IMG/VR virus record: IMGVR_UViG_3300032270_001615
Coordinates: 1 to 64,000 of that record
DNA length: 64,000 nucleotides
Source: a virus
Taxonomy: Duplodnaviria; Caudoviricetes
Strand: one strand, 5' to 3'
Made by a program: the position numbers and the translations under genes. The first letter of the stretch is position 1. Each line of letters starts with the position of its first letter. Under the pieces are notes generated by a model. The model did not search any database. It was given only the letters and a program-made list of their open reading frames with translations, and was not told where the DNA came from. Positions 9,472-24,763 of the stretch are shown here, piece after piece.

Positions 9472-9630
9472 ACCCACTGGTAACCTTTATCTTGTTCGGA
9501 GATGGTTTCCTTTCCCCTATCTCCGGATGCAATACAGCCCTTGGGTTGAGCTTCGCAAATTTGGGTTAAGTAGGTGGCCCTGGTTTTAACTAGCTCCCCA
9601 AGGGCCTTTTTTATTCTCTTCCACCACCGT

Positions 9631-10161
9631 CTATGCTTCTAATGTAAGAAGGAAAGTTCCTTCTTCAAGCATCATTCCAATACAGCAGTATCCAATCACA
9701 TCAAGGAGGTTGTCCTTGATTGATTCGTTCTCTGGAGATTTATCTGAGTTGATTAAGTTCTCTAGTCGCGCAACTTTGTCATGCACTCTCACGAGTAGAC
9801 CTTGAAAGCCAAAGCGCGCAATATTCTCATGACCATAGTCGTGCTGCTTGCGACACAGTAGATCAGCCATCGCGCCGGCCTCGAGCTCCGGTGCAGCCCC
9901 GTTTACCATCCCCAGATGCTGAGCGTATGCAACAGCTTTTGATCCGAGTGCGTGCCAGTACTCTCTACGTAGTGAGCTCTGCTCCATCTGGTCGCGCACT
10001 AGTAGTACATCATCTGACTTGCCCCAGAACATCATGATCATCGAGTCAATGACGCCCCGCATCGCGCTGAGTGAGTAGTTTGATTTGTGTGGTGTCGTAA
10101 ATATTCGACTCGTCTTGTCACGTGCAGATTGGTTCCAGCTGACAAATGTAGGTGCGCTCAT
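9631..10161 (-). CDS. nucleotide modification-associated domain 1 (Nmad1/DUF1599) protein
   Basis: RKQHDYG...VRVHDKVARLENL...ESIKDNLLDVIGY. Confidence 0.8.
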   Translation of the reverse strand: MSAPTFVSWNQSARDKTSRIFTTPHKSNYSLSAMRGVIDSMIMMFWGKSDDVLLVRDQMEQSSLRREYWHALGSKAVAYAQHLGMVNGAAPELEAGAMADLLCRKQHDYGHENIARFGFQGLLVRVHDKVARLENLINSDKSPENESIKDNLLDVIGYCCIGMMLEEGTFLLTLEA

Positions 10162-10173
10162 TTTCTTCCTTTG

Positions 10174-10563
10174 TTATCCGAGATTGAAGTCTCTGTTTGG
10201 TGGGTTGTCTTCGTATTCTTCGCCTGCTTGTTCTGAAGCTAGCTGCATGAACATTTCCCATGCCATTTCTTGGCCGGCTTCTGATTCTATTAATGCGATC
10301 TTCTCTGCCATGTCTTGAATAAATTCTTTCGAGAATGCAGCCAGAACAGTGTTGTCTTCAGCCCCGGGAAATATTACTGGGCCGGCTTCGTTATCGATCG
10401 ATGATGCGGGGACAACTATGCCCTTGATGACGACGCCCTCTTCGCTTTTAGCTACAAACAAAACCGATGGATCATCTGCGACCATGCGCATGTGTTCTTC
10501 GGATTCACCAGGGTAATCCTCGTCGAAGTCTTTACGTATGACCATTCGTTTACCTTTGCTCAT
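10174..10563 (-). CDS. acidic hypothetical protein
   Basis: 129-aa ORF. Confidence 0.55.
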   Translation of the reverse strand: MSKGKRMVIRKDFDEDYPGESEEHMRMVADDPSVLFVAKSEEGVVIKGIVVPASSIDNEAGPVIFPGAEDNTVLAAFSKEFIQDMAEKIALIESEAGQEMAWEMFMQLASEQAGEEYEDNPPNRDFNLG

Positions 10564-10680
10564 TGCTTTCCACCACCGTAGCAGCTTTTAATATGGGTCA
10601 AGAGTTCTATTAAATATAATTTAAAAAATCTTGTCTGATTTTCACACTTCGAGATAACTGTTTGCACTATTGTACTTTCT

Positions 10681-11049
10681 ATGGACAACAACACCAGATT
10701 CGAACTTTATAAAAAAGCACTTATTCAATTCTCTTCGAGAGAGCTGCATAGCAATGTGCCGGCTGCTCATGTTGAAGTTGTTGATGGACGAGAGGTAACC
10801 CTTGGAGCCTGGGTTGGCTACATGAGACAGCGCCGCAAGAAGGGACTTCTTCCGGAGCCCCGAATTTCTGAGCTCGAGGGAATTTCTGGTTGGCAGTGGG
10901 GACCACTCAAGCCAGGACCAGCGACGAACGTTAAGCGCAACTCGTTGATACTGGACCTTCGATCGAGCGGCCAGTCGCTTCGTCAGATTGCTGATCAGTT
11001 TGAGCTGAGCCGGCAGCGCGTGCACCAGATTGTGGGCAAGAATGCGTAG
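10681..11049 (+). CDS. helicase-associated (HA) domain plus C-terminal HTH protein
   Basis: LGAWVGYMRQRRKKGLLPEPRISELEGISGWQW (HA) and SLRQIADQFELSRQRVHQI (sigma r4-like HTH). Confidence 0.75.
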   Translation: MDNNTRFELYKKALIQFSSRELHSNVPAAHVEVVDGREVTLGAWVGYMRQRRKKGLLPEPRISELEGISGWQWGPLKPGPATNVKRNSLILDLRSSGQSLRQIADQFELSRQRVHQIVGKNA

Positions 11050-11305
11050 ACCAAAAACTAGCTGGCCACCACCCGACATGGAGATGGATCTAGATGATGA
11101 CTTTGAAGCCGGCACAGGAACTGCTCTAACAGGGTTCTTGTCGTGGGCCATCAGTAATTGCCTGTATACGGCGGTCGCGTTCTTCACTCTGCGAATACTT
11201 CGAGACGCAAACGTTGTTGACTTCAGCTTCACGTGGCAGCAGGTTGGCATCATTGTCACCGCTGTGCAATTCGCGCGCATCTGGGACCGAGTATTAATGC
11301 GATAA
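11042..11305 (+). CDS. small membrane protein
   Basis: Two hydrophobic segments. Confidence 0.45.
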   Translation: MRRPKTSWPPPDMEMDLDDDFEAGTGTALTGFLSWAISNCLYTAVAFFTLRILRDANVVDFSFTWQQVGIIVTAVQFARIWDRVLMR

Positions 11306-11316
11306 GTATGGATCCA

Positions 11317-11404
11317 TCCTCCGGCCAGAAAGGAATAAAAAACCGGAGGACGGCATCCATCACCAGGCAACCACTCCTGGTGCCGGCTTAGGCCGGACTT
11401 TTTC
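11317..11404. terminator. triple hairpin between convergent genes
   Basis: tcctccgg/ccggagga, caccagg/cctggtg and ccggc/gccgg, followed by ttttt. Confidence 0.5.
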
Positions 11405-11429
11405 AGACTACTACTATCCACAATAGTAG

Positions 11430-11936
11430 TCATGAAGCTTTGTCTATTTCTTTGTCTGACTTTGGGTCTCGAACTTCCCACAGGCCCTTCTTGATCTTTC
11501 GAAACACTGGTGACTCCTGGAGATACTTGAGAGTCGTTGGATATGAGAACCCGCATTCCTCGGCGAGCTGCTCTGTAGTGAACTGTTCAAACAGGTGCCC
11601 TTTCGACCACCGTAAGAATGCATCCCACTTATCAGCGCGCTTCTCGGTCTTCGTTTCCTCGAGGATGTCTTCAGCATTTAATTCGACACCGCAATAGATC
11701 TTGACCACTTCAGCAATGACGTCGTCAGGGAGGTTGTAGTGAACCAGGTAGCTGACGGCGGAACCTTTGCCGTCCCACTTCTGCAGACAATAAAGTGCAC
11801 GTATGTACGAACTGTTTCTACTGTGCACTTCCGTCGGTACTTTAAATTTTGTTCCATATTTTTGTTCTGCAATTGCCCACCACTGTCGATTGACATCTTC
11901 GATGTGAGCATCTGTGATGCGTGTTAGTAAAGCCAC
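11430..11936 (-). CDS. hypothetical protein with C-terminal HTH-like segment
   Basis: FTTEQLAEECGFSYPTTLKYL. Confidence 0.55.
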   Translation of the reverse strand: MALLTRITDAHIEDVNRQWWAIAEQKYGTKFKVPTEVHSRNSSYIRALYCLQKWDGKGSAVSYLVHYNLPDDVIAEVVKIYCGVELNAEDILEETKTEKRADKWDAFLRWSKGHLFEQFTTEQLAEECGFSYPTTLKYLQESPVFRKIKKGLWEVRDPKSDKEIDKAS

Positions 11937-12188
11937 GCCATCTCCTTATCTGTTATAGGCCTTAGGTAAGCCATGGTTGTTGGTTGTAAAGCTATCGGAT
12001 ATGAAGCCTGGTTACAACGCGTTCCGATAAATTTATCTGAAGCTCTGGCCCGGCCGGCGATGCAGCCCCGAGTGATGACTCGAGATGTTACCGGATCCGA
12101 TAACACGACTAACATCTTGATGCTTTCCGCCACCGTCGTAACTTGAGACAATATTTTTTTCTGCCGGCAGCGATGCAGCCCCGGATCA

Positions 12189-12464
12189 TTACTGACCCAG
12201 AGAGTTCTGTCCGTCATCCTCGGCGTCTTGAATGGCACCGTTGATGAGGACCCACATCTTTTGATTCATATGGTCGTAGCCCTCTTCACGGTCGTACTCG
12301 GCGACGGCGTAAGCCCATGACTCATTAGAAATCGGCTCGCCCTCTGCATCTTCGAAGAGCTCCCTACCCCACCAAGAGATGCATATCTCATCATCTTGGT
12401 TGTAGGTGGAGAGCATCTCGATTGCATCTTTGATTTTCATGCCATCACCCGTGGGAACACCCAC
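12189..12464 (-). CDS. acidic hypothetical protein
   Basis: Translationally coupled in the minus-strand operon. Confidence 0.55.
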   Translation of the reverse strand: MGVPTGDGMKIKDAIEMLSTYNQDDEICISWWGRELFEDAEGEPISNESWAYAVAEYDREEGYDHMNQKMWVLINGAIQDAEDDGQNSLGQ

Positions 12465-13522: not shown

Positions 13523-13582
13523 GGTACTAAGGTTATCGGTTATAACATCCACTCACAACCTCTTCCGCCACCGTAGTGGCTT

Positions 13583-13906
13583 TTATATTAGGTCCCACTC
13601 TTGGTTCTCGGGGAAATCTGACGCGTGACCGAAAGCTGACATGACCAACCAGCAGCATCGCAGGATTTGTCCGTCATTCCAGTCTTCGGCGTCAAGTCCG
13701 TAGACGATTGCTCGAATCGCTAGGAGCGCAGGGTCATTTGAACCCAGCATCACATCTGCAATCTTGGTCCAGTCGTCGAGCCCCGTCATCAGGTCATCGA
13801 GTTGCTGTCCATTGAGACCTTCGTCCCTGTCGTACCTGTCATCCAAGTTCATCAGCACCCTGTCAATGTGCTGGAGAACTTGGGCTGGGGTTATTGTGTC
13901 GCTCAC
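13583..13906 (-). CDS. hypothetical protein
   Basis: GTGA overlap with the upstream gene. Confidence 0.5.
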   Translation of the reverse strand: MSDTITPAQVLQHIDRVLMNLDDRYDRDEGLNGQQLDDLMTGLDDWTKIADVMLGSNDPALLAIRAIVYGLDAEDWNDGQILRCCWLVMSAFGHASDFPENQEWDLI

Positions 13907-14580
13907 GAGGTCTTCACCTTCTCTAGATGTTCTGCTAGTGCCTTGTCGGCAGCCTCTTCCAAATCCCACAAGACTTGATTGTGGAATTCTGATTGCTCGT
14001 CCCATACAGCGTCATCGCCGTCCTCTTCCATCTTGTCCCACTTCGCCTGAAGTTCTTCAGATGGGTCGGGTGGTGTGTCGCCTTCAGCAACTGTCTTGCC
14101 GTCATGGAATACGAACCAGCAAGCAAAGAAGTTGGCTTCCTCGGTGTTATGCATTCCGAACATGAGTTCAGGGAACAATCCCGAGACCTTCTCCATTAGT
14201 CCATTGGCTGGGGACCACGCTGATTCGAAATAGAAATGCAACGAGCCATTCTTTTCATCAAGGTTTTCCTCGTCCATCTCCATGTGGCATGCGCCCCATT
14301 TGGTTCCCCAGTTTTCGTGAGCCCAGTCGTACCAATCTCTAGCACCGAACTTTTCCGTGTTGTCTTTCATCTGTTGCTCATGTTCAGGGCTCTGCGGAAG
14401 ACCAAACGACGCTGTCGTTTCATGGAGTTCGGTTGGAATTGGGTAGAGGTGGTTCAGACCGAATGTCTGATAGTCATTACCCTCTTTGTTCTTTTCGGTT
14501 ATCTTCATTGCCTCTACGAGGCGACGAAGTTCCTTAGGGTCACCTTTGACAGTGACATAGTTGTAACACCAGTTAGGCAT
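13903..14580 (-). CDS. DUF1281/YubB ferredoxin-like domain protein
   Basis: MPNWCYN...WYDWAHENWGTKW...FESAWSP. Confidence 0.8.
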   Translation of the reverse strand: MPNWCYNYVTVKGDPKELRRLVEAMKITEKNKEGNDYQTFGLNHLYPIPTELHETTASFGLPQSPEHEQQMKDNTEKFGARDWYDWAHENWGTKWGACHMEMDEENLDEKNGSLHFYFESAWSPANGLMEKVSGLFPELMFGMHNTEEANFFACWFVFHDGKTVAEGDTPPDPSEELQAKWDKMEEDGDDAVWDEQSEFHNQVLWDLEEAADKALAEHLEKVKTS

Positions 14581-14618
14581 AGTAGGTCCTTTGGTTAGTG
14601 GTTGATATTGACTACAGG

Positions 14619-14996
14619 TTATCGGTTATAACCGTCAACACCAACACGGTCTCGGAATTTTTTCTCGAGTGAACTGAACCAACTCGATTGGACAATGTCC
14701 ATGGCTCGATCGACGGTCATCTCTTGGGTAGCCCCGACTTCGCCTGGATCGTCGTTGATCAAAACGTTTTTGCGTTCAAACCATTTTGATCCAGTTCCTT
14801 TGGTCGGCTCTACTAAGAGGTCAAGGTGACCATAGCGAACGCGTGCATCTGAAACTGTTCCTTCTACTTTCATCTCCATGTCTGGGATTGAGAAGAGGAC
14901 TTTCCGCCCGATGTACGCCCCGAGATTGATCTTGCCATCTTCATTGCGTGCGTATGTGAACTTTGATTCTGCTTTGTCTGTTGAGACGATATTCAT
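14619..14996 (-). CDS. hypothetical protein
   Basis: AAGGAG RBS upstream. Confidence 0.55.
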   Translation of the reverse strand: MNIVSTDKAESKFTYARNEDGKINLGAYIGRKVLFSIPDMEMKVEGTVSDARVRYGHLDLLVEPTKGTGSKWFERKNVLINDDPGEVGATQEMTVDRAMDIVQSSWFSSLEKKFRDRVGVDGYNR

Positions 14997-15082
14997 GATT
15001 GCTCCTTTAAATTTGAATGTGATTAATACTTGTAGGCGTCAGGATAGGACCTTTCCGCCACCGTTACAACTTCGCTATTGGA

Positions 15083-15577
15083 TTAATACCACGCATCCAT
15101 TCCCACCCCAAATTTTGCGCACCAGCGCAGATACCAAATGGCATGACGCACATCGTCCGTGAGGTCTTCACCATTTTGGACGATCGCACCCTTTTCATAC
15201 CAAGCCTCTTCCATTACTTCAGCGAGCTGCATGCATTCTGCAGGCGTCTTATGGGTGGCGTCTGAATTCTCTCCATAGAAATTGAATTCATCGTCATTTA
15301 AACCCAGCAACTCAATTAGGTGATTGCCGTACTTGCCTCTGTACCAACAGTCAGTGCCAAACATTCCATGCACTTCCCCGCTGTCCATGCCGTCCTGTTT
15401 ACGTGCATTCTTGTACGGGCATCCGCCGGCAGCTTGGGTGGCCCCGCAATCCACTCTCGTCGAGACCGATCCGTCTTCTTCGAGGTAGGCCTTGCCTTCC
15501 TTGTCTAGGATCGGAGTAAGCACCGCTGTGTTGCCTGTACGGCACGGGTACGCTGTTGGCATGTTGTCGAGTCCCAT
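15083..15577 (-). CDS. conserved phage hypothetical protein (MGLD start, CWYRGK motif)
   Basis: 164-aa ORF. Confidence 0.6.
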   Translation of the reverse strand: MGLDNMPTAYPCRTGNTAVLTPILDKEGKAYLEEDGSVSTRVDCGATQAAGGCPYKNARKQDGMDSGEVHGMFGTDCWYRGKYGNHLIELLGLNDDEFNFYGENSDATHKTPAECMQLAEVMEEAWYEKGAIVQNGEDLTDDVRHAIWYLRWCAKFGVGMDAWY

Positions 15578-15580
15578 TGG

Positions 15581-15808
15581 TCAGCTCCCCTTTCGCATTT
15601 CAAACAATGATGAACTTACGGCGTTAGTCCACTGCGCAAACAGGGCTTCTTGAATGTTGAATAAATCGTCAAAGATTCTGTTTAATTCTGTGAGTAGCAG
15701 AACGTTGTCCTTGTCGTTGATTTGCTTGATTTCAATTGCCATTGCATCAAGAATATTCCCGACTGCAGTGACTGCTTCTAATGATGGGTTGGTTGTGTAG
15801 TTAGTCAT
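15581..15808 (-). CDS. hypothetical protein (leaderless start)
   Basis: ATG 6 nt after TAGATT. Confidence 0.6.
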   Translation of the reverse strand: MTNYTTNPSLEAVTAVGNILDAMAIEIKQINDKDNVLLLTELNRIFDDLFNIQEALFAQWTNAVSSSLFEMRKGS

Positions 15809-15837
15809 GATTTGAATCTATCGGTTATAAGTCGCAA

Positions 15838-16050
15838 TCACAACCCGTCAACTTCAAACCAATTCATTACTGTTACGAGCAGGTGTTGATAGTCGCCAGC
15901 AGTTGCTTCTTTCATGAACGCATCAATCTCTTCTTGGGGCAAACCAGCGCGCCGTGCTTGACGCTTGCATCGTGCAAGTATGGCAAATGCATTGCCATCC
16001 TCTCCAACTAAATCTACGGATATTTCAGGATGTTTAATTGTGGTTGTCAT
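15838..16050 (-). CDS. conserved small protein with DGNAF motif
   Basis: LVGEDGNAFAIL...EATAGDYQHLL; leaderless start. Confidence 0.7.
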   Translation of the reverse strand: MTTTIKHPEISVDLVGEDGNAFAILARCKRQARRAGLPQEEIDAFMKEATAGDYQHLLVTVMNWFEVDGL

Positions 16051-16184
16051 GACGTAAACGTTATCGCTTATAAATAGCAACGACAACCTGTTTGCTGAAG
16101 AGCCGGCCAGGCGTCGAGTGGAGCCCCGTGGTATTCCTTTCCGCCACCGTTGTTCTTTGTATATGGATCGTGTAAGCTACCGGT

Positions 16185-16397
16185 ATGTCGGGACGTAATT
16201 ACAACCTCTACTCGTGTGAACTGTGTACTGGGCAAATAGACATCAAATCCGCAAACTGCTTGCGTTTGGTGACTTGCTGGGTGAAAGGAACGTCCCGCTC
16301 TATGGCTGAGCAGGTGACAGACCACTATCGCTATGTCCACGATTTCTGCCTAGCAGGACAGAAGGACAAGTCACTAGGACAAGACAGCCTATTCTGA
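16185..16397 (+). CDS. small Cys/His-rich hypothetical protein
   Basis: CELC...HDFC; TAAGCT 6 nt upstream of the ATG. Confidence 0.5.
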   Translation: MSGRNYNLYSCELCTGQIDIKSANCLRLVTCWVKGTSRSMAEQVTDHYRYVHDFCLAGQKDKSLGQDSLF

Positions 16398-16565
16398 TCG
16401 CTGGGCTGCCAGATGCAGTCCCTGAGGTTGATTTTCTGGCACTTCGCTTCGCTTGTTACCGCCGAGTAACACACGCAAATAAATCTTTCTAGCGAGGTTG
16501 TGATTATCGCCTATAACCGATAAATTGAGTGTTACCTACTACGACACCTAAGGGGGTGAAAAAAT

Positions 16566-16961
16566 ATGTCCAAGCAACTTTCTGCCGTTGCTCGTCAGTA
16601 CATCAGCGCACTAGAGGCGCAAGCGTCTGCCGAGCGAGCCGTCGCTGTTGCGAAGGAACTGCTTACCGAAGCGTACGCCGAAGCAGGCGTGAACTCTGTG
16701 GAAGCAGAAGGCAAGAGCGTAATGCTCATTGAGGCTGTCCGTCGTAACTTTGACGCTCAGGCGTTGGAAGCACTTGTCAGCGCAAAAACGTTCCGTGAAG
16801 TCACCAAGACTGCGGTAGAGCCAAAAGCGTTTGACAAGGCTCGCAAGTCAGGCGAAATTGACGAGAGTGTGGAAACGGCTGTTGTAAAGCCAAGCCCATA
16901 CACTCGCATTGTCGTCAAAGACCTTGCGGTCAGCGCAACCGAAACCGCCGAAGCGGTCTAG
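16566..16961 (+). CDS. hypothetical protein
   Basis: 131 aa with its own promoter and terminator. Confidence 0.65.
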   Translation: MSKQLSAVARQYISALEAQASAERAVAVAKELLTEAYAEAGVNSVEAEGKSVMLIEAVRRNFDAQALEALVSAKTFREVTKTAVEPKAFDKARKSGEIDESVETAVVKPSPYTRIVVKDLAVSATETAEAV

Positions 16962-16972
16962 TCCTATCCGTT

Positions 16973-17008
16973 GGGGGTGGGGGAGAAATCCCTCACCCTC
17001 TTTTTTTT
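16973..17008 (+). terminator. intrinsic terminator
   Basis: gggggtgggggagaaatccctcaccctc followed by T8. Confidence 0.7.
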
Positions 17009-17234
17009 GCCCATCATCTGGCAGCGCGGTAGCCCAGGGTTTCGCGTTGGCTGTTCTGAACGTAGAAACCACAGGCGGGACTCACGGCACGCACAAAGCG
17101 CACCTGAGGCACGGGGGCAGGGGCAGGGGCAGAAAGTTCCCAAGAAAGTTTGCCCGTCAGGTTGTTGTTATGGGGTATAACCGATAAAGTTGATAGTGCC
17201 ATAAACCAACCACAAGAAAGAGGGGTAATACCTA

Positions 17235-17669
17235 ATGGCAAGACAGCAAAGCATAAATGTCAAAGTCGCCACCAAAAAGGTGATAGAGGCATTGGAGAAG
17301 TCGCTCATTGAGCGCAAGAAGCAATACGCCGAGTACGAGAAATTGGAAAAGGCATATCAGACAGCCAAAGAGGGTGCAACCAAAAAGGTCGCTACTCTCG
17401 TCAAGCAAGGCAAAGTCACCATTGAGGACATCACCGAAAGTGGTCACTACCATTGGAAGCGCACAAGTGATGATGAAGTCACTTTCAGCATTGACATCAA
17501 GGTTGCCAAAAAGGTTCTAGGTATCCCTGAAAACCCAACCAACCCGTTCCCGTACCACTCGTACAAAGAGGACAACCAAGCCATTGAGAACGCTATCCGT
17601 ATTCTCAAAATGACTGATGAGGAGTATGTCTCCACAAGCACCTACTCGGCAGTCTCCAAGTTCATCTGA
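17235..17669 (+). CDS. hypothetical coiled-coil protein
   Basis: 144 aa, own promoter, GAGGGG RBS. Confidence 0.65.
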   Translation: MARQQSINVKVATKKVIEALEKSLIERKKQYAEYEKLEKAYQTAKEGATKKVATLVKQGKVTIEDITESGHYHWKRTSDDEVTFSIDIKVAKKVLGIPENPTNPFPYHSYKEDNQAIENAIRILKMTDEEYVSTSTYSAVSKFI

Positions 17670-17816
17670 TACCCAAACAGGTGACGGCAAAGGGGGTGGG
17701 CAACCACCCCCGAAGCCACCCGTCCCGGGTTTCAGTTAGAAGATTTCGGGGTGTCAGGTTGTGATTAGAAGTTATAACCGATAAAGTGAAAACACCAACT
17801 ACTCAAGGAGATTTAT

Positions 17817-18335
17817 ATGGGAATGGATGTAATGGGAATGAATGCCACTTCAGAAAAGGGCGAGTACTTCCGTAACAATGTTTGGTGGTGGCGACCCCTG
17901 TGGGATTACTGCCTCAACGAACACGGCGACATTGCTGGTCAGGTGGAACACGGTCACTCAAACGACGGTGACGGTCTTGACGGCGAGAACAGTCGCATAC
18001 TCGGACTTCGCTTACTGGAAGATGTGAAAACGGGACGTGCTGCTGAGTACAAGCAGACCTACGACAAGGCGTTGTCTGAACTGCCACGAGTGTCGTGCGA
18101 CCTGTGCAACTCAACTGGTATCCGTACGGACAAAATTGGCTTGGAAATGAAAATGCCTGAAAAGGCGTTAGATGAAGCGAGCGCAATTATTCTCGGTCGC
18201 ACACACGGGTTCTGCAATGCGTGTCACGGCTACGGAACGCAGGCTCACTTCGGAACTAGTTATCCGTTTGATGTGGACAATGTTCAGGAGTTCGCAGAGT
18301 TCCTCGTTGACTGTGGTGGATTTCAGATTTGCTGA
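17817..18335 (+). CDS. conserved phage protein with DnaJ-type CxxCxGxG zinc finger
   Basis: YFRNNVWWWRPLW; CDLCNSTG and CNACHGYG. Confidence 0.7.
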   Translation: MGMDVMGMNATSEKGEYFRNNVWWWRPLWDYCLNEHGDIAGQVEHGHSNDGDGLDGENSRILGLRLLEDVKTGRAAEYKQTYDKALSELPRVSCDLCNSTGIRTDKIGLEMKMPEKALDEASAIILGRTHGFCNACHGYGTQAHFGTSYPFDVDNVQEFAEFLVDCGGFQIC

Positions 18336-18372
18336 GGTTGTGTTTGTCACCTATAACCGATAAAGTGAACCT

Positions 18373-18585
18373 ATGACACCTGCTGACTTCACAAAAGAAG
18401 CACTAGACGAACTCATTGGTGAGAACTACGAGGTCGGCACAAAAGGCGGTGACACCTATGACGGTGAAATATCTGATGTGACCGACACGGTTCTCACAAT
18501 GCTGTGGTTCAACCTAGTCAAAGACCAAGTTCGTGAACTTGACATACCTATCGCAGACATAAGTTGGATAAAGGAGAGCCTGTGA
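18373..18585 (+). CDS. small acidic protein (leaderless start)
   Basis: ATG 6 nt after TAAAGT. Confidence 0.6.
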   Translation: MTPADFTKEALDELIGENYEVGTKGGDTYDGEISDVTDTVLTMLWFNLVKDQVRELDIPIADISWIKESL

Positions 18586-18905
18586 GTAACGCAGTAGATG
18601 AGGCACTAGAACTTGGCGTAATCGCTCGCAAACTATTTATGGCTTTGCGTTATCAAGAGTGTCTTTGCGTTGAGACAGACGAATACACCGAGTGGCAACG
18701 CACGAGAGAGTGGTTTCTCAACACCAATTTCCCTGACGCTAACGCAGAGGAGATTTCAGCACACCGACTGATGTACATACTCTTTACCAACCCTTACGAG
18801 GGAGAGCAGGTATCTGAAACTTGCCAACGCTGTTCAGCAATGGAAGCCTACGAGAACTTCATTGGGCAAGACCACCTCAACCTGTACCTAGAAGGCAGGG
18901 AGTGA
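18582..18905 (+). CDS. hypothetical protein
   Basis: GTGA overlap and AAGGAG RBS. Confidence 0.55.
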   Translation: MSNAVDEALELGVIARKLFMALRYQECLCVETDEYTEWQRTREWFLNTNFPDANAEEISAHRLMYILFTNPYEGEQVSETCQRCSAMEAYENFIGQDHLNLYLEGRE

Positions 18906-19111
18906 TGTCTGAGCCGGCCCCGTCGATCGGGTAGGCTCTTCCGCCACCGTAAGTACTAGAACATAGGTGACAAGCAAGCTGGTTTGCTGGGCTTTAAGCA
19001 CGCATCAAAAACCGAAAAACAGAACTTGACATAACTCCACTCAACTTTGTTGCGTTGATATATTACGGGTGGCAGGTTGTGTTTGCGAGTTATAACCGAT
19101 AAAGTGAACTC

Positions 19112-19348
19112 ATGCACGACATACTAAAAGAAGCACACGAAAAACGAACCGAAAAACTCGCAGACCTGTGGGCTTGCGCTCACGAGTACACGAGTTCCAC
19201 CAAAGAGGAGAACCTAGAACTGGCTCTCGCCTCACTCATAAACGTAATCGCAGGTCGTGATTACGGCTACGAGTTCATCAAAGATATGACAGCACTCGCT
19301 AACAGCACTATCGCCGAGCGTGTGGTGGAACAGAAGAAAGCCTCGTAA
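19112..19348 (+). CDS. hypothetical protein (leaderless start)
   Basis: ATG 6 nt after TAAAGT. Confidence 0.6.
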   Translation: MHDILKEAHEKRTEKLADLWACAHEYTSSTKEENLELALASLINVIAGRDYGYEFIKDMTALANSTIAERVVEQKKAS

Positions 19349-19494
19349 GAGGTTGTCATTGTCGGTAATAACCGATAGAGTTAGATTTAGACAGGGAGAC
19401 TGAAGAGTGTCCCATAACGCTAATCGGGAGATGGAAATGTCTCCCGACAGGCTCTCCCTGTCTATCCAAGTACCTACTACGAACTGGAGATGAA

Positions 19495-19728
19495 ATGACA
19501 CTTAGAAGCCCCGAAGTGCGGTCAGAGTACCTCTACGCACTCAAGCAATATGTTGCAAAGGCGTTTGCCTTGTCCCAAGTTTGGGAGTGCATCAACCTAG
19601 ATGAAAAACTGAGCAACGCGGTAGCCGGGACTACGTTCCCGTTCGCCATGTCCTTTGACGAGTATTGCTGCGAGATGCTTGCGATACTCAACAGGTTGGA
19701 AGAAGAACTCGCAGAGGCAGCCGCATGA
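19495..19728 (+). CDS. hypothetical protein
   Basis: GGAG RBS. Confidence 0.55.
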   Translation: MTLRSPEVRSEYLYALKQYVAKAFALSQVWECINLDEKLSNAVAGTTFPFAMSFDEYCCEMLAILNRLEEELAEAAA

Positions 19729-19928
19729 GCCCCGCCCCCCAGATACTCGTGAAGGCAAACCTGCGCTGGAACACCCAGCACGTTCCTTCAGCAACGGAAA
19801 ACAAGTTCTACACCCCAGACGACATCGACGGGGCTTGCCTGCTCTCGCTCGTTGAGGGCGAGGCGACACTCCGACTTCACGACGGTAGGAAGGCAGTCGT
19901 GTTTCACGAGGACATAGAAATCTTGTAA
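19725..19928 (+). CDS. hypothetical protein
   Basis: ATGA overlap. Confidence 0.45.
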   Translation: MSPAPQILVKANLRWNTQHVPSATENKFYTPDDIDGACLLSLVEGEATLRLHDGRKAVVFHEDIEIL

Positions 19929-19991
19929 CGCAGGTTGTGGTTATGCCCTATAACCGATAGAGTGAAGTTACCTACAAACGGAAGGAATACT

Positions 19992-20432
19992 ATGTCCATA
20001 ATGGCACTCGCTAGCAAGGTTGATGAACTCATCACTTTGCCAGCCGACCAAAAAACGGCGAAACTCATCGCAGTATTTGGCACTAACGAGTTGGAGATTA
20101 CCTCTGACGACCTAGCCCAAGTTGCTGAACACGGTGATGTTTACGACCTACTAGAGAGCGACATTGCTCGCTCAACGGCTCAGTTCGCTGACGCTATCAC
20201 CCTCGTCACCTGCGGTTGGGCTTCGCCTATTGCCGAAGGTCAGAGTGATGACGAGCAAGTTGCGCCTTCGCAACACCCTGAACGCCGTAGAGTTCGGTTG
20301 GTCGTAACAGCCACCCGTGAACACACGGCAAGCGTTCTGCGTTTCTCTGACGACTGGGATAACCCTGTTACCGATGAGGGACACGCACGAGGCTCACTCG
20401 CTGACGCTGTACGAGAGTTGTTTCAGGACTAA
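19992..20432 (+). CDS. conserved hypothetical protein
   Basis: AAGGAA RBS; GWASP...APSQHPERRRVRL. Confidence 0.65.
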   Translation: MSIMALASKVDELITLPADQKTAKLIAVFGTNELEITSDDLAQVAEHGDVYDLLESDIARSTAQFADAITLVTCGWASPIAEGQSDDEQVAPSQHPERRRVRLVVTATREHTASVLRFSDDWDNPVTDEGHARGSLADAVRELFQD

Positions 20433-20447
20433 TCACCCCTGAACCCC

Positions 20448-20489
20448 AGCCACCTGCCGTTCGCACCCCGTTCGGCAGGTGGCTTTCTC
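20448..20489 (+). terminator. intrinsic terminator
   Basis: 12-bp stem agccacctgccg/cggcaggtggct followed by ttctc. Confidence 0.65.
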
Positions 20490-20825
20490 GTAGCCCCGAG
20501 CTGCTGGTTGTCGCTTTCCACCACCGTAAGTACTAGACGTATAGATGTGTCTTCGTTCCAACCGGGGCTCCACACCTACCCCTAGCCTTTTTTTATACGG
20601 CTATAACTGGTTGCTTGACCAACTACAACCACTCCCCTACTCTCGCCCGTGCCGAACTGAAGTAGAAGACCAGATCAGACAGTCCAGCCTTTGGGTTTGC
20701 ACGTGATTCAGACGTAACCACTTCGCTGGGCTCCGTCCGTCGGTGCGCATTGTTGGCTTGTCGGCGACTCGGAAAATTGTTGGCGCAGGTTGCTATTGCC
20801 AGTTATAACCGATAAAGTTATACCC

Positions 20826-21095
20826 ATGACAACCACAACCATGAGACATAAATTATCCACCAATGCCCTTCAGGCAGATTCCTTCGGTTGGAATGCCACC
20901 GAGTACCAACTGGATATCTGGCAGGACGACAACGACAATAGTTTGTTCGTTCGTGTGCTGAAGGACGGCAATCCACACGCTGCGGCGACATTCCGTGACT
21001 GCGAGACACAGCACCATGACAGCGAGCGTTGGCTGAACGACAAGGTTGGATTCCCCAACCCGTTTGCAGGGATTCTCTCCAACCAACTTTGGTAA
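20826..21095 (+). CDS. hypothetical protein (leaderless start)
   Basis: ATG 7 nt after TAAAGT. Confidence 0.6.
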   Translation: MTTTTMRHKLSTNALQADSFGWNATEYQLDIWQDDNDNSLFVRVLKDGNPHAAATFRDCETQHHDSERWLNDKVGFPNPFAGILSNQLW

Positions 21096-21432
21096 TCCCA
21101 AGTCTCGGCGACTGGCGCACCCCCTGCGTCGGTTGCCGACGGCTGGCGTCCCGCCTCTTTGCTTGTTTGTATTTGTAGTTCCACAATGCGTAGGTTGACT
21201 CAGCGGGGATGCGGCAACGCGGAACGCTGGGCTTATCTCGAGCTGTCGAGCTCTTCCGCCACCGTGAGTCCTAGACGAATAGGCACACCTCAGGTTGGGG
21301 GTCGGGGCTTACAGATGCCATCTTGTTAGCACTAAATTTAGTGCGAAATTTGGTGCGAAATAAAAGTTTTCTGCGAGGTTGTGCTTGGCGGTTATAGCCG
21401 ATAGAGTGAAAGCAACCTACGAAAGGAAAACG

Positions 21433-21780
21433 GTGAAAGTCAATTTTGGAAAGTCCTCACACCAAATTGCCACACTTGAGCGAGAAGGTCGTTCGTGTGA
21501 TGGTGGTGTAATCCTCAATCAAATTGGGAAAATGACGGTTCTCGGTGTTTGCGGTGGCAGGGTTATCGCACTCAAGGACAGCGAAGGAAGCCATGTTGGA
21601 GTTGCGTTGTTCGTAACGAACTCACGCCGTATTGAGGTCATTCTCAATTTCTTAGATGTTTATGATGTTCGCCGTATCCGCACAGACAGAGAAGGCAACG
21701 AAATCGTTGAGGCAGAGTTCTCAATGGTCTATTGTGACGAACTAGAGAGCGCAGTTTGGAAAGCGAGTTGCTGGGAATGA
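21433..21780 (+). CDS. hypothetical protein
   Basis: AAGGAA RBS then GTG; RRIEVILNFLDVYDVRR. Confidence 0.6.
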   Translation: MKVNFGKSSHQIATLEREGRSCDGGVILNQIGKMTVLGVCGGRVIALKDSEGSHVGVALFVTNSRRIEVILNFLDVYDVRRIRTDREGNEIVEAEFSMVYCDELESAVWKASCWE

Positions 21781-21959
21781 CACTCAAACTAGTGCCACCC
21801 GTCTACGAGTGGCAAACGTGGAAAGACGGCTACCAACCGAGCGACGAGCAACTCGGGGCTATGGGCGACGAAGAGTACGAAGCCTACGCCCGTTGCGTAA
21901 TATATCCGAAGGTAGAAATCTCAAAACGAAGCCACCCAACCTACAGAGGAGACAAATGA
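21777..21959 (+). CDS. hypothetical protein
   Basis: ATGA overlap. Confidence 0.45.
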   Translation: MTLKLVPPVYEWQTWKDGYQPSDEQLGAMGDEEYEAYARCVIYPKVEISKRSHPTYRGDK

Positions 21960-22246
21960 TGGAAACACAGGAGCCCCGACTTACGCGTGAGGCGATCCAT
22001 GAAGCACTCGTTGCTATGGACGAAAGCGCATTACTAATGGATGGATTTGATGAAGCCTTCATTGGCTGGTCACGCAGGGGGAACGAGCCGTTGCTCGCTG
22101 TCTACTCTTATGAAAAAATGCTTGATGTTTGCGTTGAGCGTGACGGAATGGAGTTTGAGGAAGCAGTTGAATATGTTGATTTCAATTGCGTAGGTGCTTG
22201 GATGGGAGAACGCACACCTATCATCGTGATGCCATTCATGGACTAG
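21956..22246 (+). CDS. conserved phage hypothetical protein
   Basis: LLMDGFDEAFIG...AVYSYEKM...EEAVEYVDFNCVGAWMGERTP. Confidence 0.7.
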   Translation: MMETQEPRLTREAIHEALVAMDESALLMDGFDEAFIGWSRRGNEPLLAVYSYEKMLDVCVERDGMEFEEAVEYVDFNCVGAWMGERTPIIVMPFMD

Positions 22247-22271
22247 ACTTGTAAAAGACAAGGAGTCCAGA

Positions 22272-22514
22272 ATGAACCCAGAGAAGAAGACCGGGGCTAA
22301 TGGGATGACGTACACGTATACCGATTTCTTAGCCGATGTACAAAAAGCGCATTCCGACATGCACGGTCATTGGCGTTTTGGACAATGTTATTTCAACACG
22401 ATGCGATCCAAGCGTCCCGCTTTAGCTGAAGAGCTCAGAGGTTCATCCTTTGATCCGTTTCATCGAGACGAAGTAGATCAGTTGACCCACAACTGGGCAA
22501 GAGAGAATTGGTAA
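22272..22514 (+). CDS. hypothetical protein
   Basis: AAGGAG RBS; WRFGQCYFN...DPFH. Confidence 0.6.
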   Translation: MNPEKKTGANGMTYTYTDFLADVQKAHSDMHGHWRFGQCYFNTMRSKRPALAEELRGSSFDPFHRDEVDQLTHNWARENW

Positions 22515-22691
22515 AACCAATCAGGCTCTTCCGCCACCGTTGTTCTTAGACGATAAGCGCATCCTTCTTGTGAAGCGGGGCCCCTGGATGTCTGGCCGGC
22601 CCGCCTGATCCGATCGGGTTTGATATACCTGATTGTATATATTTTCTAGATCAGGTTGTTATTGTTGCCTATAACCGATAAACTGATTTTT

Positions 22692-22925
22692 ATGACAACA
22701 CTACCTACACACCCAAGTGATCCCGAACTCGCCCAAATACTTTGGGAAGAGTACTTCGCACCAACCACGACACCTGCAAAGGCGATCGCCACCATGTTTG
22801 ACGATCTCGCAGAAAAACGTTTCTTGTATGACGATCTGAAAACGACAGAGGCAGAGATCCTCGCTCATATCATTGCCTTCGCCAAGCAAACGCACGATCT
22901 AGGCGTACTGCACCAAGAGTTGTAA
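22692..22925 (+). CDS. hypothetical protein (leaderless start)
   Basis: ATG 7 nt after TAAACT. Confidence 0.6.
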   Translation: MTTLPTHPSDPELAQILWEEYFAPTTTPAKAIATMFDDLAEKRFLYDDLKTTEAEILAHIIAFAKQTHDLGVLHQEL

Positions 22926-22975
22926 TCCAAAGACGGCTGGCACGCCCCCCGTGCTGGTCGTCGCTGGCTGTCCCG

Positions 22976-23191
22976 CTATTTTTCTTCTAGCGGATACACA
23001 ACCATCAAGTCTGGTTTGCGTGACCCATCAACTTGTTCGCCACCGCCCTGAATGACCCTGAGCGAAAGGCTGGGCTTCAGAATCGCAGCAATTTCTTCGT
23101 TCGCTTGCTGAACTTCCGTAATTCGCTCGTGAACTTCGTCCAACAACTTTTGTAATTTTTTTGTTTTGTGTTGAAAGAGTTCGTTTTCCAT
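22976..23191 (-). CDS. small coiled-coil protein
   Basis: MENELFQHKTKKLQKLL...LRVIQGG. Confidence 0.45.
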   Translation of the reverse strand: MENELFQHKTKKLQKLLDEVHERITEVQQANEEIAAILKPSLSLRVIQGGGEQVDGSRKPDLMVVYPLEEK

Positions 23192-23506
23192 TGACGAGAA
23201 TATATCATGGATCGCACGTCGCGCGCCGGCCCCGCAAATTGGAGATGCTATGAAACCAAAGAAAGAAACCCACGAGTGCCACATGAAGAGGTTCGTGAGG
23301 CATGAAGAAGATAGATGCGCTGGTTCGGTGAAGCCTCGCAGCGACACGCACCTTTGCGAGTACCACTTTGGCATTGAGCAAGAAGCCCGATACTTGGGGC
23401 GGATGGCGTAAACAGAAAGCTGGGCTGTCCTCCAGACACAGCCGTACTAAAAACTTTTTCTTGTCACGAGGTTGTGGTTATTAGTAATAACCGATAGAGT
23501 GAAATT

Positions 23507-23605
23507 ATGACAGAAACAATTCTGTATGTTGAGGGACTTTTTCTCGGCGTACTTCACGGAATACTCATTGGCTACATGCTCGGGAGAAGGAGTAAAAAGA
23601 AATGA
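23507..23605 (+). CDS. 32-aa single-TM peptide (not in ORF track)
   Basis: MTETILYVEGLFLGVLHGILIGYMLGRRSKKK; leaderless start 6 nt after TAGAGT. Confidence 0.55.
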   Translation: MTETILYVEGLFLGVLHGILIGYMLGRRSKKK

Positions 23606-23931
23606 ACGAAAACACCTACCGAACAGCAAAGACCGTGCTTATCACGGCGACAGTGACCATTGCGTCAGTGCTTGCGTTCAGTTTCATGAAGGAACAGCAA
23701 CGACAGTCCAATGAGTTCTTTTGCAACGGCGCATCTGTGACGATCAAAGAAGGCGACACCCTGTACTGGATTGCACGGACAAACTGTGAGGGCAACACCA
23801 TGAATGTCGTTGATCAGTTGGTCTCAGTTTACGGGACTACGCTGAACGTCGGCGACACGATCTACTTACCCACACACCCTAATTGCGAACTTCGCCTCAC
23901 AGACGGCGGTCAGGTGATGGAAGACTGCTGA
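23602..23931 (+). CDS. membrane-anchored LysM domain protein
   Basis: N-terminal TM; VTIKEGDTLYWIAR...LNVGDTIYLP. Confidence 0.75.
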   Translation: MNENTYRTAKTVLITATVTIASVLAFSFMKEQQRQSNEFFCNGASVTIKEGDTLYWIARTNCEGNTMNVVDQLVSVYGTTLNVGDTIYLPTHPNCELRLTDGGQVMEDC

Positions 23932-24305
23932 TGAGCATGGTGATTGTCGGCGTAGATGACGAACTCGGACACATCTGCGACGCGTGCGGCTCGGGAGTCC
24001 CGACTCAGGGTTGGCACGTTCCGTACGAGACCATTGGTTACTACGATGGTTTCACGGACAATTTAGAAGCACTCATGTCTGATGACGACCCGAAGTATTG
24101 GTTCTTGTGTCACGACTGCATTGTCAAGTTGCTCACATTCTTCCCACGACTAGGTTCTTTCTTTAGTCAGGGACAGCATCCGTGCGACGGAGACGCCCCG
24201 TGTTGCAAGTGGGCTTGGCGTTCACACGAAGGCGTAACACAAGTTGTTGGAGATGACGGTGGGTGGATTCCGCTTCCCAAAAAAGAGGATGAGTCACCTT
24301 TCTGA
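23931..24305 (+). CDS. Cys-rich hypothetical protein
   Basis: CDAC...CHDC. Confidence 0.55.
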   Translation: MSMVIVGVDDELGHICDACGSGVPTQGWHVPYETIGYYDGFTDNLEALMSDDDPKYWFLCHDCIVKLLTFFPRLGSFFSQGQHPCDGDAPCCKWAWRSHEGVTQVVGDDGGWIPLPKKEDESPF

Positions 24306-24447
24306 GAGGTCGACATCGGCGGGGCTGCACAGCTTGCCGGCAGACGAACGGTAGCGTTTGAAGCGGACAAATGGAAGTGTTTGACACAAGCAGGTTGTGA
24401 TTGACCTCTATAACCGATAGAGTGGTATCAACCAAGAAGGGGGCACT

Positions 24448-24612
24448 GTGCCAAAACAAAAAGCAACAGCAGTTGATCTGACCGAAGAGGAATATGCAGA
24501 GGTCATCAAGTGGGCTGACAAGTTCGGTCTACACCGTACGTACAATGCTTCGCAGGGTGGCATGCAGATCAACGGAGTTGTCTACCGCAAGCCAGTATTC
24601 AGTCTGATCTAA
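24448..24612 (+). CDS. small hypothetical protein (54 aa)
   Basis: Follows the promoter copy at 24393 and an AAGGGG RBS. Confidence 0.45.
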   Translation: MPKQKATAVDLTEEEYAEVIKWADKFGLHRTYNASQGGMQINGVVYRKPVFSLI

Positions 24613-24763
24613 CAAAGTCCCAGAGCAGTTCCGGTTGCCGGCTGTCCCGCTTTAAAGCTTGTCCTTGAAGTCCTTTCCGCCACCGTTGTTCTTAGACGAA
24701 TAAGTGTGTGTCCGTGTCCTTCCCGGGGCTACCTGTTTCTACATCTACTGTGGAAAAACTGAA

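Follow-up and report, generated by a model that had tools for sequence, protein, structure and literature searches.

A one-stranded 12-mer in the early-gene block of a phage looks like an undescribed direction-giving DNA signal

Why would a phage keep a short word on one strand of its DNA when the genes around the word run both ways? The window that we analysed, 64,000 nucleotides of an 86.8-kb contig, contains 11 exact matches to TTCCRCCACCGT, all on the + strand; 0.01 matches would be expected, and none of 100 shuffles reached 11. Counted on both strands, the word is strongly above chance on one strand only. The first-pass annotation had given the same copies at the same coordinates, placed them all outside called genes, and found no full copy beyond their block. 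These statements held when we re-counted: the other 22.8 kb of the contig has no exact copy, and many of the 11 copies lie 0-10 nt from a stop codon. There are also three one-mismatch copies (9176, 11602, and 27158), again all on the + strand. The word comes from the early-gene block of an uncultured freshwater phage. An actinobacterial host is suggested because two WhiB proteins are encoded in the window.

One word, one strand, two gene directions

The direction of the genes changes from the - to the + strand at about 16.1-16.5 kb, as had been noticed, while the 12-mer stays on the + strand throughout, so its orientation is independent of transcription. The phage does have a repeated element that tracks transcription, and it was rightly kept apart from the 12-mer: a family of host-type promoters (13534..24846; -35 box TTGTGA, 17-nt spacer, -10 box TAAAGT, and ~7 nt to the ATG), with 4 on the - strand in the left arm and 13 on the + strand in the right arm.

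In the left arm, the first two copies are of the A variant. Copy 1 (9619..9630) is the left edge of the motif domain, and its 3' end abuts the stop of the leftward gene 9631-10161; copy 2 (10568..10579) is next to the leftward gene 10174-10563, whose start codon is 4 nt away. The one-mismatch copy at 9176..9187 lies slightly to the left of the domain edge, with similar near-copies at the matching place in three relatives (G001, G002, and G003). Copy 3 (12125..12136) sits between 24-nt direct repeats (12057-12080 and 12170-12193). Copy 4 (13563..13574) has the stop of the leftward gene 13583-13906 on one side and, on the other, the -35 box of the next promoter in that direction; on the + strand, the core itself folds into a small hairpin with a T-run after it. 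Copy 5 (15053..15064) is between the leftward genes 15083-15577 and 14619-14996, and copy 6 (16139..16150) is in the divergent region that separates the arms.

In the right arm, the copies are parts of longer units, also on the + strand. Unit 7 (18936..18993) consists of a flank, the 12-mer (18939-18950), a second box, and the word CTGGGCT; it starts 33 nt past the stop of the gene 18564-18905, and the next promoter is 128 nt further on. In unit 8 (20513..20569; 12-mer at 20516-20527), the core is flanked by an inverted pair of words, GCCCCG at 20493 on one side and CGGGGC at 20563 on the other. Unit 9 (21251..21309; 12-mer at 21254-21265) is missing, as a stretch of ~90 nt, from the corresponding place in the close relative G005. 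Unit 10 (22526..22582; 12-mer at 22529-22540) is 14 nt past the stop of 22272-22514, and unit 11 (24672..24730; 12-mer at 24675-24686) is upstream of the WhiB-helicase genes.

We found relatives of the phage via its SNF2-type helicase (25506..27473, + strand), and we call the strand that is sense for the helicase forward. Across these uncultured phage contigs, there are 177 distinct copies of the 12-mer in the forward orientation and 0 in reverse. Taken over whole contigs, the copies are on a single strand in each (counts on the two strands of the contig of 10/0, 0/10, 9/0, 0/9, and 10/0). Each genome has 9-11 copies, 0.7-5 kb apart and all within a divergently transcribed early block of ~25 kb in a genome of ~150 kb, and the orientation is constant through both arms in 6 of the 6 genomes that we examined. 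The core is invariant across the relatives, except that subgroups have variant 5' halves of the 12-mer; no such conservation is seen for the promoters of these regions. Even between phages whose helicases are only ~60% identical, copies are at orthologous places. Given that the relatives keep both the word and its direction despite the opposite directions of the genes, the 12-mer looks like an undescribed direction-giving DNA signal. This is what the annotation had proposed, and it generalises beyond the window. No paper in the literature that we searched describes the motif.

The site and its companion word

The conserved footprint is longer than the 12-mer, at ~23 bp: a flank of S-C-T, the core TTCC-D-CCACCGT, an A at +2, and C-T-T at +6 to +8. 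After the core, the second box has its strongest positions at +7/+8 (T T) and is clade-specific further out; it is uniform inside one genome and differs between clades. The flanks are alike in the left and right arms, which fits one double-stranded DNA site that is read identically everywhere. In the left arm, the conservation of the flank and of +7/+8 runs into coding sequence.

The site is often at the ends of genes. The stop of a + strand ORF is 0-9 nt 5' of the core for 38 of 182 copies, and the stop of a converging - strand ORF is 0-9 nt 3' of the core for 22 of 182. After the site, a hairpin, at times with a T-run, comes within 20-40 nt. Within 110 nt, a hairpin plus T-run is present on the + strand of 34 of 209 units and on the - strand of 11, as compared to 5.5-7% of random windows, so only ~16% of units have a canonical terminator. 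In predicted folds, no hairpin at the motif is conserved on either strand, and the word is not kept single-stranded on either strand. Nor is there an inverted repeat of the core.

It had been claimed that the core extends into a bipartite unit of which CGGGGCT is the other part. The second box stands, and the five right-hand cores are indeed followed by CGGGGCT at a distance of 36-38 nt, but this word is not private to the unit. CGGGGC or its complement GCCCCG is present in 43 copies from 9896 to 31495, on both strands and in coding as well as intergenic DNA, and is absent from the other 65 kb of the contig. We must redefine the unit as a 12-mer site inside a domain-wide CGGGGC system. In four genomes the hexamer is limited to the 12-mer domain. 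Its distance from the core peaks at ~40 bp, and where it is on both sides of the core, the two copies form an inverted pair in 19 of 20 cases. Inside genes, it is preserved through synonymous codon choice in phages that have the 12-mer and is rare at the matching positions of relatives that lack it. The hexamer resembles matS, the site of MatP in the Ter macrodomain of E. coli, in being a short word that is enriched in one domain, also within genes, and absent elsewhere. However, matS is palindromic, 13 bp long, and chromosomal, while CGGGGC is an asymmetric phage word of 6-7 nt.

A candidate reader and a one-way barrier

From the observed site, with its polarity, conservation, position, companion hexamer, and linked gene, we infer a reader and a way of acting. 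We tentatively favor the possibility that the 12-mer is the core of an asymmetric, ~23-bp double-stranded DNA site for a phage DNA-binding protein and that it marks a one-way barrier at the ends of cassettes. The reader would be encoded by the phage and would be sequence-specific. The best candidate is a conserved two-module protein of 122 amino acids (10681..11049, + strand), with an HA domain and a helix-turn-helix (HTH) of the sigma-4/resolvase type, because its gene is on the motif strand and because in most relatives a copy is ~70-100 bp upstream.

This HA-HTH gene is the sole conserved gene of the left arm that is on the motif strand. It is a real gene: 27 of 30 substitutions are at third codon positions. 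It has its own leaderless -10 box directly before the ATG, and copy 2 is 101 nt upstream of it. The motif is always co-oriented with it, and a copy lies 69-101 nt upstream of its ATG at 16 of 22 loci; in a divergent subgroup, this upstream copy is missing. The recognition helix is invariant, and the HTH part resembles those of resolvases and of sigma region 4. For the HA domain, DNA binding has been reported (Mills et al. 2013, as cited in PMC12191111). Homologues are present in G001-G003 and were not found in two contigs without the 12-mer (G006 and G008), a link that involves few genomes, which are phylogenetically nested. Also, one 16-kb contig (L110) has the gene and not the 12-mer.

If the bound sites are barriers or insulators at cassette junctions, then they would block machinery moving in the direction of the helicase, in the simplest case RNA polymerase; that they act one way is our assumption. 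In the right arm, the sites would close cassettes. In the left arm, they would stop rightward (antisense) read-through while letting leftward transcription pass. Against this proposal, it is hard to see why rightward antisense transcription in the left arm would have to be stopped 4-6 times, and a barrier to transcription alone leaves the domain-wide hexamer unexplained.

Among the closest known likenesses are the stoperators of Cluster A mycobacteriophages (the sites of gp71 of L5). These are also dispersed, asymmetric, multi-copy sites of 12-14 bp that are mostly intergenic in a phage of actinobacteria, and both they and the 12-mer are presumably read by one phage HTH protein. Stoperators even start with GGTGG, as does the complement of the 12-mer core. 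But stoperators are oriented with transcription and flip between the arms, and they are spread across the genomes of temperate phages. The 12-mer does not flip and is in one block of a phage for which we found no integrase in five contigs that were up to 88% complete.

Other explanations

Several other explanations, namely Chi or KOPS, integron-like cassette exchange, REP/RAYT elements, and promoters for a phage polymerase, each lack support or fail a test. We also think it unlikely that the units are activator-dependent rightward promoters, with the 12-mer in place of the -35 box and the second box as the -10. They might produce a one-directional middle wave or short RNAs, which would match the sense of the right-arm genes and, as antisense to the left-arm genes, shut the left arm off. 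The second box is at a fixed distance, is similar to the local -10 region of the phage, and is uniform within a genome yet variable between clades. Also, units are upstream of + strand genes, including two within the left arm: the HA-HTH gene here and, in G005, a + strand Dps-like gene that comes after the counterpart of copy 3. However, the ribosome site of this Dps-like gene is the second-box region itself, and its transcript therefore has to begin before the unit. The final T of TANNNT is missing from the second box in most clades. The HA-HTH gene and those of the right arm each have a leaderless promoter of their own at the ATG, with the unit a variable 80-175 nt further upstream, and the hairpin within 20-40 nt also counts against promoters. 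We found no phage RNA polymerase or sigma region 2. The MotA boxes of T4 middle promoters and the PeSL cassettes of T4-type phages are similar in that they are repeated regulatory modules among small early genes, with a box at the -35 place. But those elements track transcription, and in our phage it is the separate promoter family that does so.

It is also improbable, in our view, that the 12-mer is a strand-specific signal on single-stranded DNA or at replication forks, such as a priming site, a same-strand nick site (as in T5, phiKMV, and tf), or a polar fork barrier. This would account for the strict orientation irrespective of genes, and the spacing of 0.7-5 kb and the adjoining helicase and primase-helicase genes are suggestive. 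The 12-mer consensus is bipartite, as nick motifs reportedly are, and pairs of DnaA boxes follow two copies in G002 and G004. On the other hand, DnaA boxes are not enriched in the window, neither strand has a consistent hairpin, and the copies are against gene ends rather than randomly placed. Replication and nicking are genome-wide, while the motif occupies only ~25 kb of ~150 kb. Known barriers such as Tus-Ter of E. coli, RTP-Ter of B. subtilis, and the rDNA fork barriers likewise consist of a protein on an asymmetric site of ~20-30 bp and act differently according to the side from which they are approached, and those of rDNA are also at the 3' ends of transcription units. But Ter sites form two opposed groups that trap forks, while all of the 12-mers point one way. 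We know of no relative of Tus or RTP here, and barrier action at these sites is hypothetical.

Because the word has a fixed orientation in the DNA and follows stops in both arms, right-arm transcripts would carry the C-rich word and left-arm transcripts its complement. Transcripts from opposite arms could then pair in trans. We consider such RNA tags quite unlikely, and we know of no precedent. They would explain the fixed orientation, the extreme invariance of every copy, and why, in either arm, the word is just past stop codons on the incoming side. But 12-15 pairs is short, the predicted folds do not leave the word single-stranded, and the conservation that extends into left-arm coding sequence is easier to understand as the footprint of a protein. 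The in-gene hexamers on both strands would also be unexplained.

Recombinational cassette exchange, which the annotation had listed, now seems highly doubtful. Short conserved joints would need to be co-oriented for swaps between phages, the order of cassettes between copies differs between the phage and L010, one unit and its adjacent genes are present or absent among close relatives, and homology often stops 20-40 nt past the core. Yet neighboring genes have stayed together as often at motif junctions (0.42) as at other junctions inside the same block with similar gaps (0.41 or 0.33), so gene order breaks no more often at the motif. There is no inverted repeat of the core, and no tyrosine or serine recombinase was found in the five contigs (≤88% complete). 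Integron attC sites are likewise co-oriented at the 3' ends of cassettes whatever the direction of the genes, but they have the inverted core sites, conserved fold, integrase, and excess of gene-order breaks that the 12-mer lacks.

We are more skeptical still that the 12-mer is a signal for host machinery, either Chi-like (RecBCD/AdnAB) or KOPS-like (a translocase). Its G-rich complement includes GGTGGYGG, and in lambda, the orientation of Chi is strict relative to cos, so that it is set by the polarity of the genome and not by the genes. But Chi is a word of 5-8 nt that can be anywhere, including within genes, and is abundant in the host, while the footprint here, at ~23 bp, far exceeds any Chi or KOPS, has variant 5' halves in subgroups, and is at gene ends in one domain. 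It is not repeated in any cellular contig sampled, and among the matches listed, the 14-mer has only scattered single hits in bacterial genomes. There is similarly little chance that a selfish REP- or MITE-like repeat took its orientation from the direction of replication: positions just past stop codons, a GC-rich hairpin or hexamer joined to a fixed core, and the gain or loss of one unit between close relatives would fit, but there is no conserved fold, no copy outside the single block, and no RAYT or Y1 transposase in the five contigs (up to 88% complete), and the copies hold orthologous positions at ~60% helicase identity.

Finally, the one-mismatch copy at 27158..27169 (+ strand) is in a variable loop of the helicase gene. 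It is an exact 12-mer in the equivalent position of L010 and L025 and is missing from most other relatives.

A word that keeps its strand

The window contains 11 copies of the polar 12-mer TTCCRCCACCGT (at 9619, 10568, 12125, 13563, 15053, 16139, 18939, 20516, 21254, 22529, and 24675), all on the + strand, as the first-pass annotation had claimed; 0.01 copies would be expected by chance, and no shuffled sequence reached 11. All 11 lie between genes. The window covers 64 kb at the start of a viral contig from IMG/VR that is 86.8 kb long and has an estimated completeness of 58%. The other 22.8 kb contain no copy, which agrees with the earlier remark that no full copy was noticed outside this block. 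Three copies with one mismatch (9176, 11602, and 27158) are on the + strand too. The reported flip in gene direction is also sound: three sources (open reading frames, a gene call from codon usage, and the public gene calls) place leftward genes at about 7.6-16.1 kb (the left arm) and rightward genes from about 16.5 kb on (the right arm). The 12-mer keeps its strand across both arms, unlike the local family of host-type promoters (13534-24846), which have a -35 box of TTGTGA, 17 nt, a -10 box of TAAAGT (or TAGAGT), and about 7 nt to the ATG. The right arm has 13 of these promoters, all on the + strand, and the left arm has four, all on the - strand; their orientation thus flips with the genes. 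This promoter motif is conserved in the two closest relatives only. Because the -10 box is so close to the ATG, we expect that most of the early mRNAs are leaderless. Leaderless mRNAs are common in Actinobacteria.

Each of the five right-arm copies in the window follows a stop codon at 14-83 nt (or at 158 nt for one, by a crude gene call), and the next promoter is 115-264 nt beyond it. In the left arm, the copies are squeezed into gaps between one leftward gene's stop codon and the next one's promoter or start. As a side observation, the SNF2-type helicase gene (25506-27473, + strand) contains a copy in frame at 27158-27169, in a variable loop, where it encodes S-S-A-T-V. This copy is exact in two relatives (L010:11644 and L025:6112) and is missing in the closest relative (L009) and in most others.

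With the helicase as an anchor, we fetched 68 related viral loci. The expectation that the core would be conserved held up well: the exact 12-mer is found in most relatives whose helicase is at least about 58% identical, and it is always in the sense of the helicase. In five whole contigs, the forward and reverse counts are 10/0, 0/10, 9/0, 0/9, and 10/0, with the copies bunched within about 22-25 kb of contigs of up to 132 kb. The block is divergent in the relatives too, and in six genomes the 12-mer stays on one strand through both arms. Across all of the loci (about 1.5 Mb, including overlaps), copies in distinct contexts number 177 forward and 0 reversed. If the core is generalized to [AT]T[AC]C[AGT]CCACCGT, which is the version of a divergent subgroup, then the counts are 214 and 1. 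In that subgroup (L100, L104, L109, and L111), the word starts with TTAC or ATAC rather than TTCC, and a palindrome, CGAACTAGTGTTCG, lies upstream of the gene for the HA-HTH protein that is discussed below. In the literature that we searched, the 12-mer and its complement appear only in papers on unrelated subjects, and the word is nowhere described. So the earlier suggestion of an undescribed directional signal, oriented independently of transcription, still seems right to us.

We also considered whether the repeated motifs of relatives that lack the 12-mer (L028, L046, and L057) might be its counterparts. We rejected these candidates: one of the words flips its orientation within its contig (G008), and in each of the remaining two a single copy is reversed. 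We read these motifs as promoters.

The site and its companion hexamer

The 12-mer is the core of a site of about 23 bp at gene ends, which is deeply conserved and strictly co-oriented. This footprint is asymmetric and is identical in the left and right arms. It consists of S-C-T 5' of the core, the core itself, A at +2, and C-T-T at +6 to +8. Position 5 of the core is free to be G, A, or T, but is never C, and neither arm prefers a particular variant. Past the footprint is a second box, W-T-n-A-G-n-A-A, which is well conserved in the copies that are co-directional with genes; it is uniform inside one genome and depends on the clade. The stop codon of a + strand reading frame is 0-9 nt 5' of the core in 38 of 182 copies (most commonly at 4-5 nt), and the stop of a converging - strand frame is 0-9 nt 3' of the core in 22 of 182.

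The first-pass annotation joined the 12-mer to CGGGGCT in a bipartite unit. There is a real peak of this word near the core, but it is not a private part of the unit: the hexamer CGGGGC is a separate and larger phenomenon that extends across the domain. The hexamer or its complement has 43 copies from 9896 to 31495 (about 9.9-31.5 kb) and none in the remaining 65 kb of the contig. About 14 would be expected by chance in the whole window, and the enrichment within the domain is about tenfold. The copies are on both strands, between genes and within them, and in all frames. In three relatives, the 7-mer is restricted to the corresponding domain. Furthermore, conserved Ala-Pro pairs in the helicase are always encoded by GCC CCG in phages that bear the 12-mer, while relatives without the 12-mer use other codons. 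This codon choice shows that the hexamer is selected at the level of DNA. The hexamer is also associated phylogenetically with the 12-mer.

Around the 12-mer, the hexamer peaks at 40-49 nt past the start of the core (47 of 117 units) and again at 20-50 nt before the core. When it is present on both flanks, the two copies form an inverted pair in 19 of 20 cases. In five genomes, the first hexamer and the first 12-mer coincide within about 300 nt at the left edge of the domain. We rejected a polarity of the hexamer itself: the 14 leftmost copies in a row share a strand in just three phages (this one and its two nearest relatives), and other genomes are mixed.

To our knowledge, the repeated asymmetric words that have been described in phages are promoters, operators, stoperators that follow transcription, or words of the host's machinery such as Chi. 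This one differs in three ways. It is deeply conserved yet indifferent to the direction of transcription across a divergent block, it lies directly against gene ends, and it has a companion word that is restricted to a domain and is maintained inside genes through synonymous codons. These differences point to a DNA-level system of organization, shared by a large family of uncultured phages. The sites are also a practical marker for recognizing and orienting contigs from this family.

A candidate reader and possible functions

The HA-HTH gene (10681-11049, + strand) is the one gene in the left arm that is on the same strand as the 12-mer. It encodes 122 amino acids, with an HA (helicase-associated) domain and a helix-turn-helix of the resolvase/sigma region 4 type. 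The public gene calls instead choose an overlapping minus-strand reading frame of 263 amino acids at 10642-11556. Relative to the closest relative, 27 of 30 substitutions are at third positions of the + strand frame; this pattern shows the constrained reading in the overlap to be that of the predicted HA-HTH gene. On the minus strand, constraint on a gene is seen only from about 11050 (leftward of 11433). Homologues in three relatives (G001-G003) are 63-68% identical, and none was found in two contigs that lack the 12-mer (G006 and G008) or among GenBank phages. We fetched 22 viral loci with homologues, and in every one that bears the word, all of its copies are co-oriented with the HA-HTH gene. 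A copy lies 69-101 nt 5' of the ATG in 16 of the 22; in one locus (L110), HA-HTH is present and the 12-mer was not found within the 16 kb analyzed. With a leaderless -10 box of its own at the ATG, the gene does not have its core promoter in the unit.

Among homologues, the recognition helix does not vary. The predicted structure is confident (pLDDT 86), with weak structural matches at the level of the helix-turn-helix only. According to PMC12191111, which cites Mills et al. 2013, a solved structure of the HA domain indicates DNA binding. HA domains also occur fused to Tn7 target selectors. A DNA-binding protein with two modules would fit an asymmetric site that spans two turns. Comparing the protein families that co-occur with the 12-mer near the helicase did not discriminate, because the loci that lack the 12-mer are simply more distant.

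The most economical explanation is that a phage protein and its DNA sites form a system that sets a direction for the early/replication domain. Our tentative proposal is that the 12-mer is a one-way barrier or insulator that is read by the HA-HTH protein. If so, then this would be the first function for a phage HA-domain protein, and also a compact orientation-dependent genetic insulator. We think it rather unlikely that the two words together form a novel "domain code" of the phage genome, in which about 30 kb are marked by the hexamer as an early/replication domain, with a direction that comes from the co-oriented 12-mers. Under such a code, the hexamer would be read by a DNA-binding factor of the phage and purged elsewhere in the genome, and the 12-mers would be one-way gates for a machine that tracks along DNA, whatever the orientation of the genes. 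Candidates for this machine are RNA polymerase, the replisome, and translocases, among them the SNF2 ATPase of the adjacent gene. In a virus, it would be an arrangement akin to that of oriented CTCF sites or Ter sites.

Six rivals share the remaining probability. The unit could be an activator-dependent promoter. The middle promoters of T4-type phages have a MotA box at about -30 and a sigma-70-type -10 box (TAnnnT) at a fixed spacing, and are co-oriented with genes. In contrast, the last T is missing from most second boxes here, and left-arm copies oppose their genes. In the close relative G005, the region of the box is the ribosome site of the following gene. Neither sigma region 2 nor a T7-type RNA polymerase was found, although the search for the latter (PF00940) covered five incomplete contigs and had no match in the control either. 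The stoperators of Cluster A phages are also asymmetric (13-14 bp) and dispersed in many copies, as here (11, or 9-11 in relatives), but they are oriented with transcription, while the 12-mer is on the same strand in both arms in six genomes. Stoperators are read by a temperate phage's immunity repressor. This phage encodes an XRE protein (13035-13268) as well as HA-HTH, and no integrase was found in five contigs.

The word could also be a strand signal that is linked to replication or nicking, or a tag that acts as complementary RNA. The same-strand nick motifs of T5, phiKMV, and tf are places where virion DNA carries a physical single-strand break. A hairpin with a run of T follows within 110 nt of the unit on the + strand in 34 of 209 cases and on the - strand in 11 of 209, as compared to 5.5-7% of random windows. 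There is no positional pairing signal for a conserved RNA or single-stranded DNA fold on either strand, and no Rfam family scored above threshold in 9.0-25.5 kb.

The sites could also be recombination joints, as the first-pass annotation raised in proposing cassette exchange. The order of cassettes differs between this phage and L010, and a unit of about 90 nt is present or absent between close relatives, as is a Dps-like gene beside another unit. But tyrosine recombinases, serine recombinases, and Y1 transposases were all undetected in five contigs of up to 88% completeness. The breakpoint check went against cassette exchange: gene adjacency is kept equally at the motif and at other junctions in the block with similar gaps. 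(Raw adjacency, kept at 44% versus 70%, looked like a recombination hot spot, but this vanished with matched controls.) Integron attC sites have imperfect inverted core sites and fold on one strand; here there are 0 reverse cores and no consistent pairing on either strand, and none of G000-G003 and G005 has the integron integrase (PF00589), for which control genomes were positive. As for the Dps-like gene, it was recognized by eye as Dps/ferritin-like in G005 (L086:5362-5830, + strand), where it starts 21 nt past the 12-mer. It is deleted in the window (12137-12170), where direct repeats of 24 nt flank the site on either side (12057-12080 and 12170-12193).

Words of the host's machinery, such as the Chi or KOPS sites that were raised earlier, are disfavored by the long footprint, the position at gene ends, and the restriction to a domain. 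Chi is over-represented in the genome of the host, whose nuclease reads it. It is 5-8 nt and occurs in coding and non-coding DNA alike, whereas this site is about 23 bp, against gene ends, and intergenic in 11 of 11 cases; KOPS/SRS words are skewed genome-wide, whereas the 12-mer is limited to about 25 kb of contigs of up to 132 kb. Among the matches listed, the 14-mer had only scattered single matches in bacterial contigs. Finally, a selfish repeat of the REP/BIME/REPIN type would also lie just past stop codons, but those have a RAYT (Y1 HUH) enzyme and a palindromic unit, while PF01797 is absent here and no palindrome is conserved. We could not place the site in any of the known families that we considered.

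Genome type, host, and neighboring elements

The phage encodes an HK97-type capsid protein, a portal, a prohead protease, and a large terminase, along with the SNF2-type helicase, a Toprim/AAA primase-helicase, and a class II ribonucleotide reductase. We did not find a close cultured phage, and the helicase is at most 37% identical to those of GenBank phages. Two WhiB-family proteins are encoded, just to the left of the block (7223-7507) and just 5' of the helicase (24850-25149), and these point to an actinobacterial host. A search of bacterial genomes by WhiB, aimed at the host, found no relative. This contig is also in ENA, where it belongs to a metagenome sample record. We infer both the host and a freshwater origin: this large family of uncultured phages probably infects freshwater Actinobacteria. 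Very few phages of freshwater Actinobacteria have been cultured.

In five genomes, a conserved non-coding stretch of about 400 nt adjoins the first 12-mer on its left (9234-9618 in the window; L079:15880-16269, L080:6690-7094, and L083:9594-9990 in relatives). It contains a G-run element, GGAGGGGG-n3-GGGGGAA, and a hairpin with a covarying stem (about 9497-9525 in the window), and it does not match any Rfam family. In G001-G003, the loop of the hairpin is UUUCCUCCUUUC, which resembles the 3' end of 16S rRNA, as a mimic of the anti-Shine-Dalgarno sequence. Because many of the early genes seem to be leaderless, this stretch might act as a small RNA, titrating ribosome-binding sites.

DnaA boxes are not enriched in the window. 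In two relatives, G002 (L082) and G004 (L084), tandem pairs of DnaA-box-like 9-mers (TGTGGATAA) lie about 45-80 nt past two helicase-proximal 12-mers and 5' of the helicase gene, and another such cluster is at L029:11348-11766. These may be origins that use the host's DnaA.
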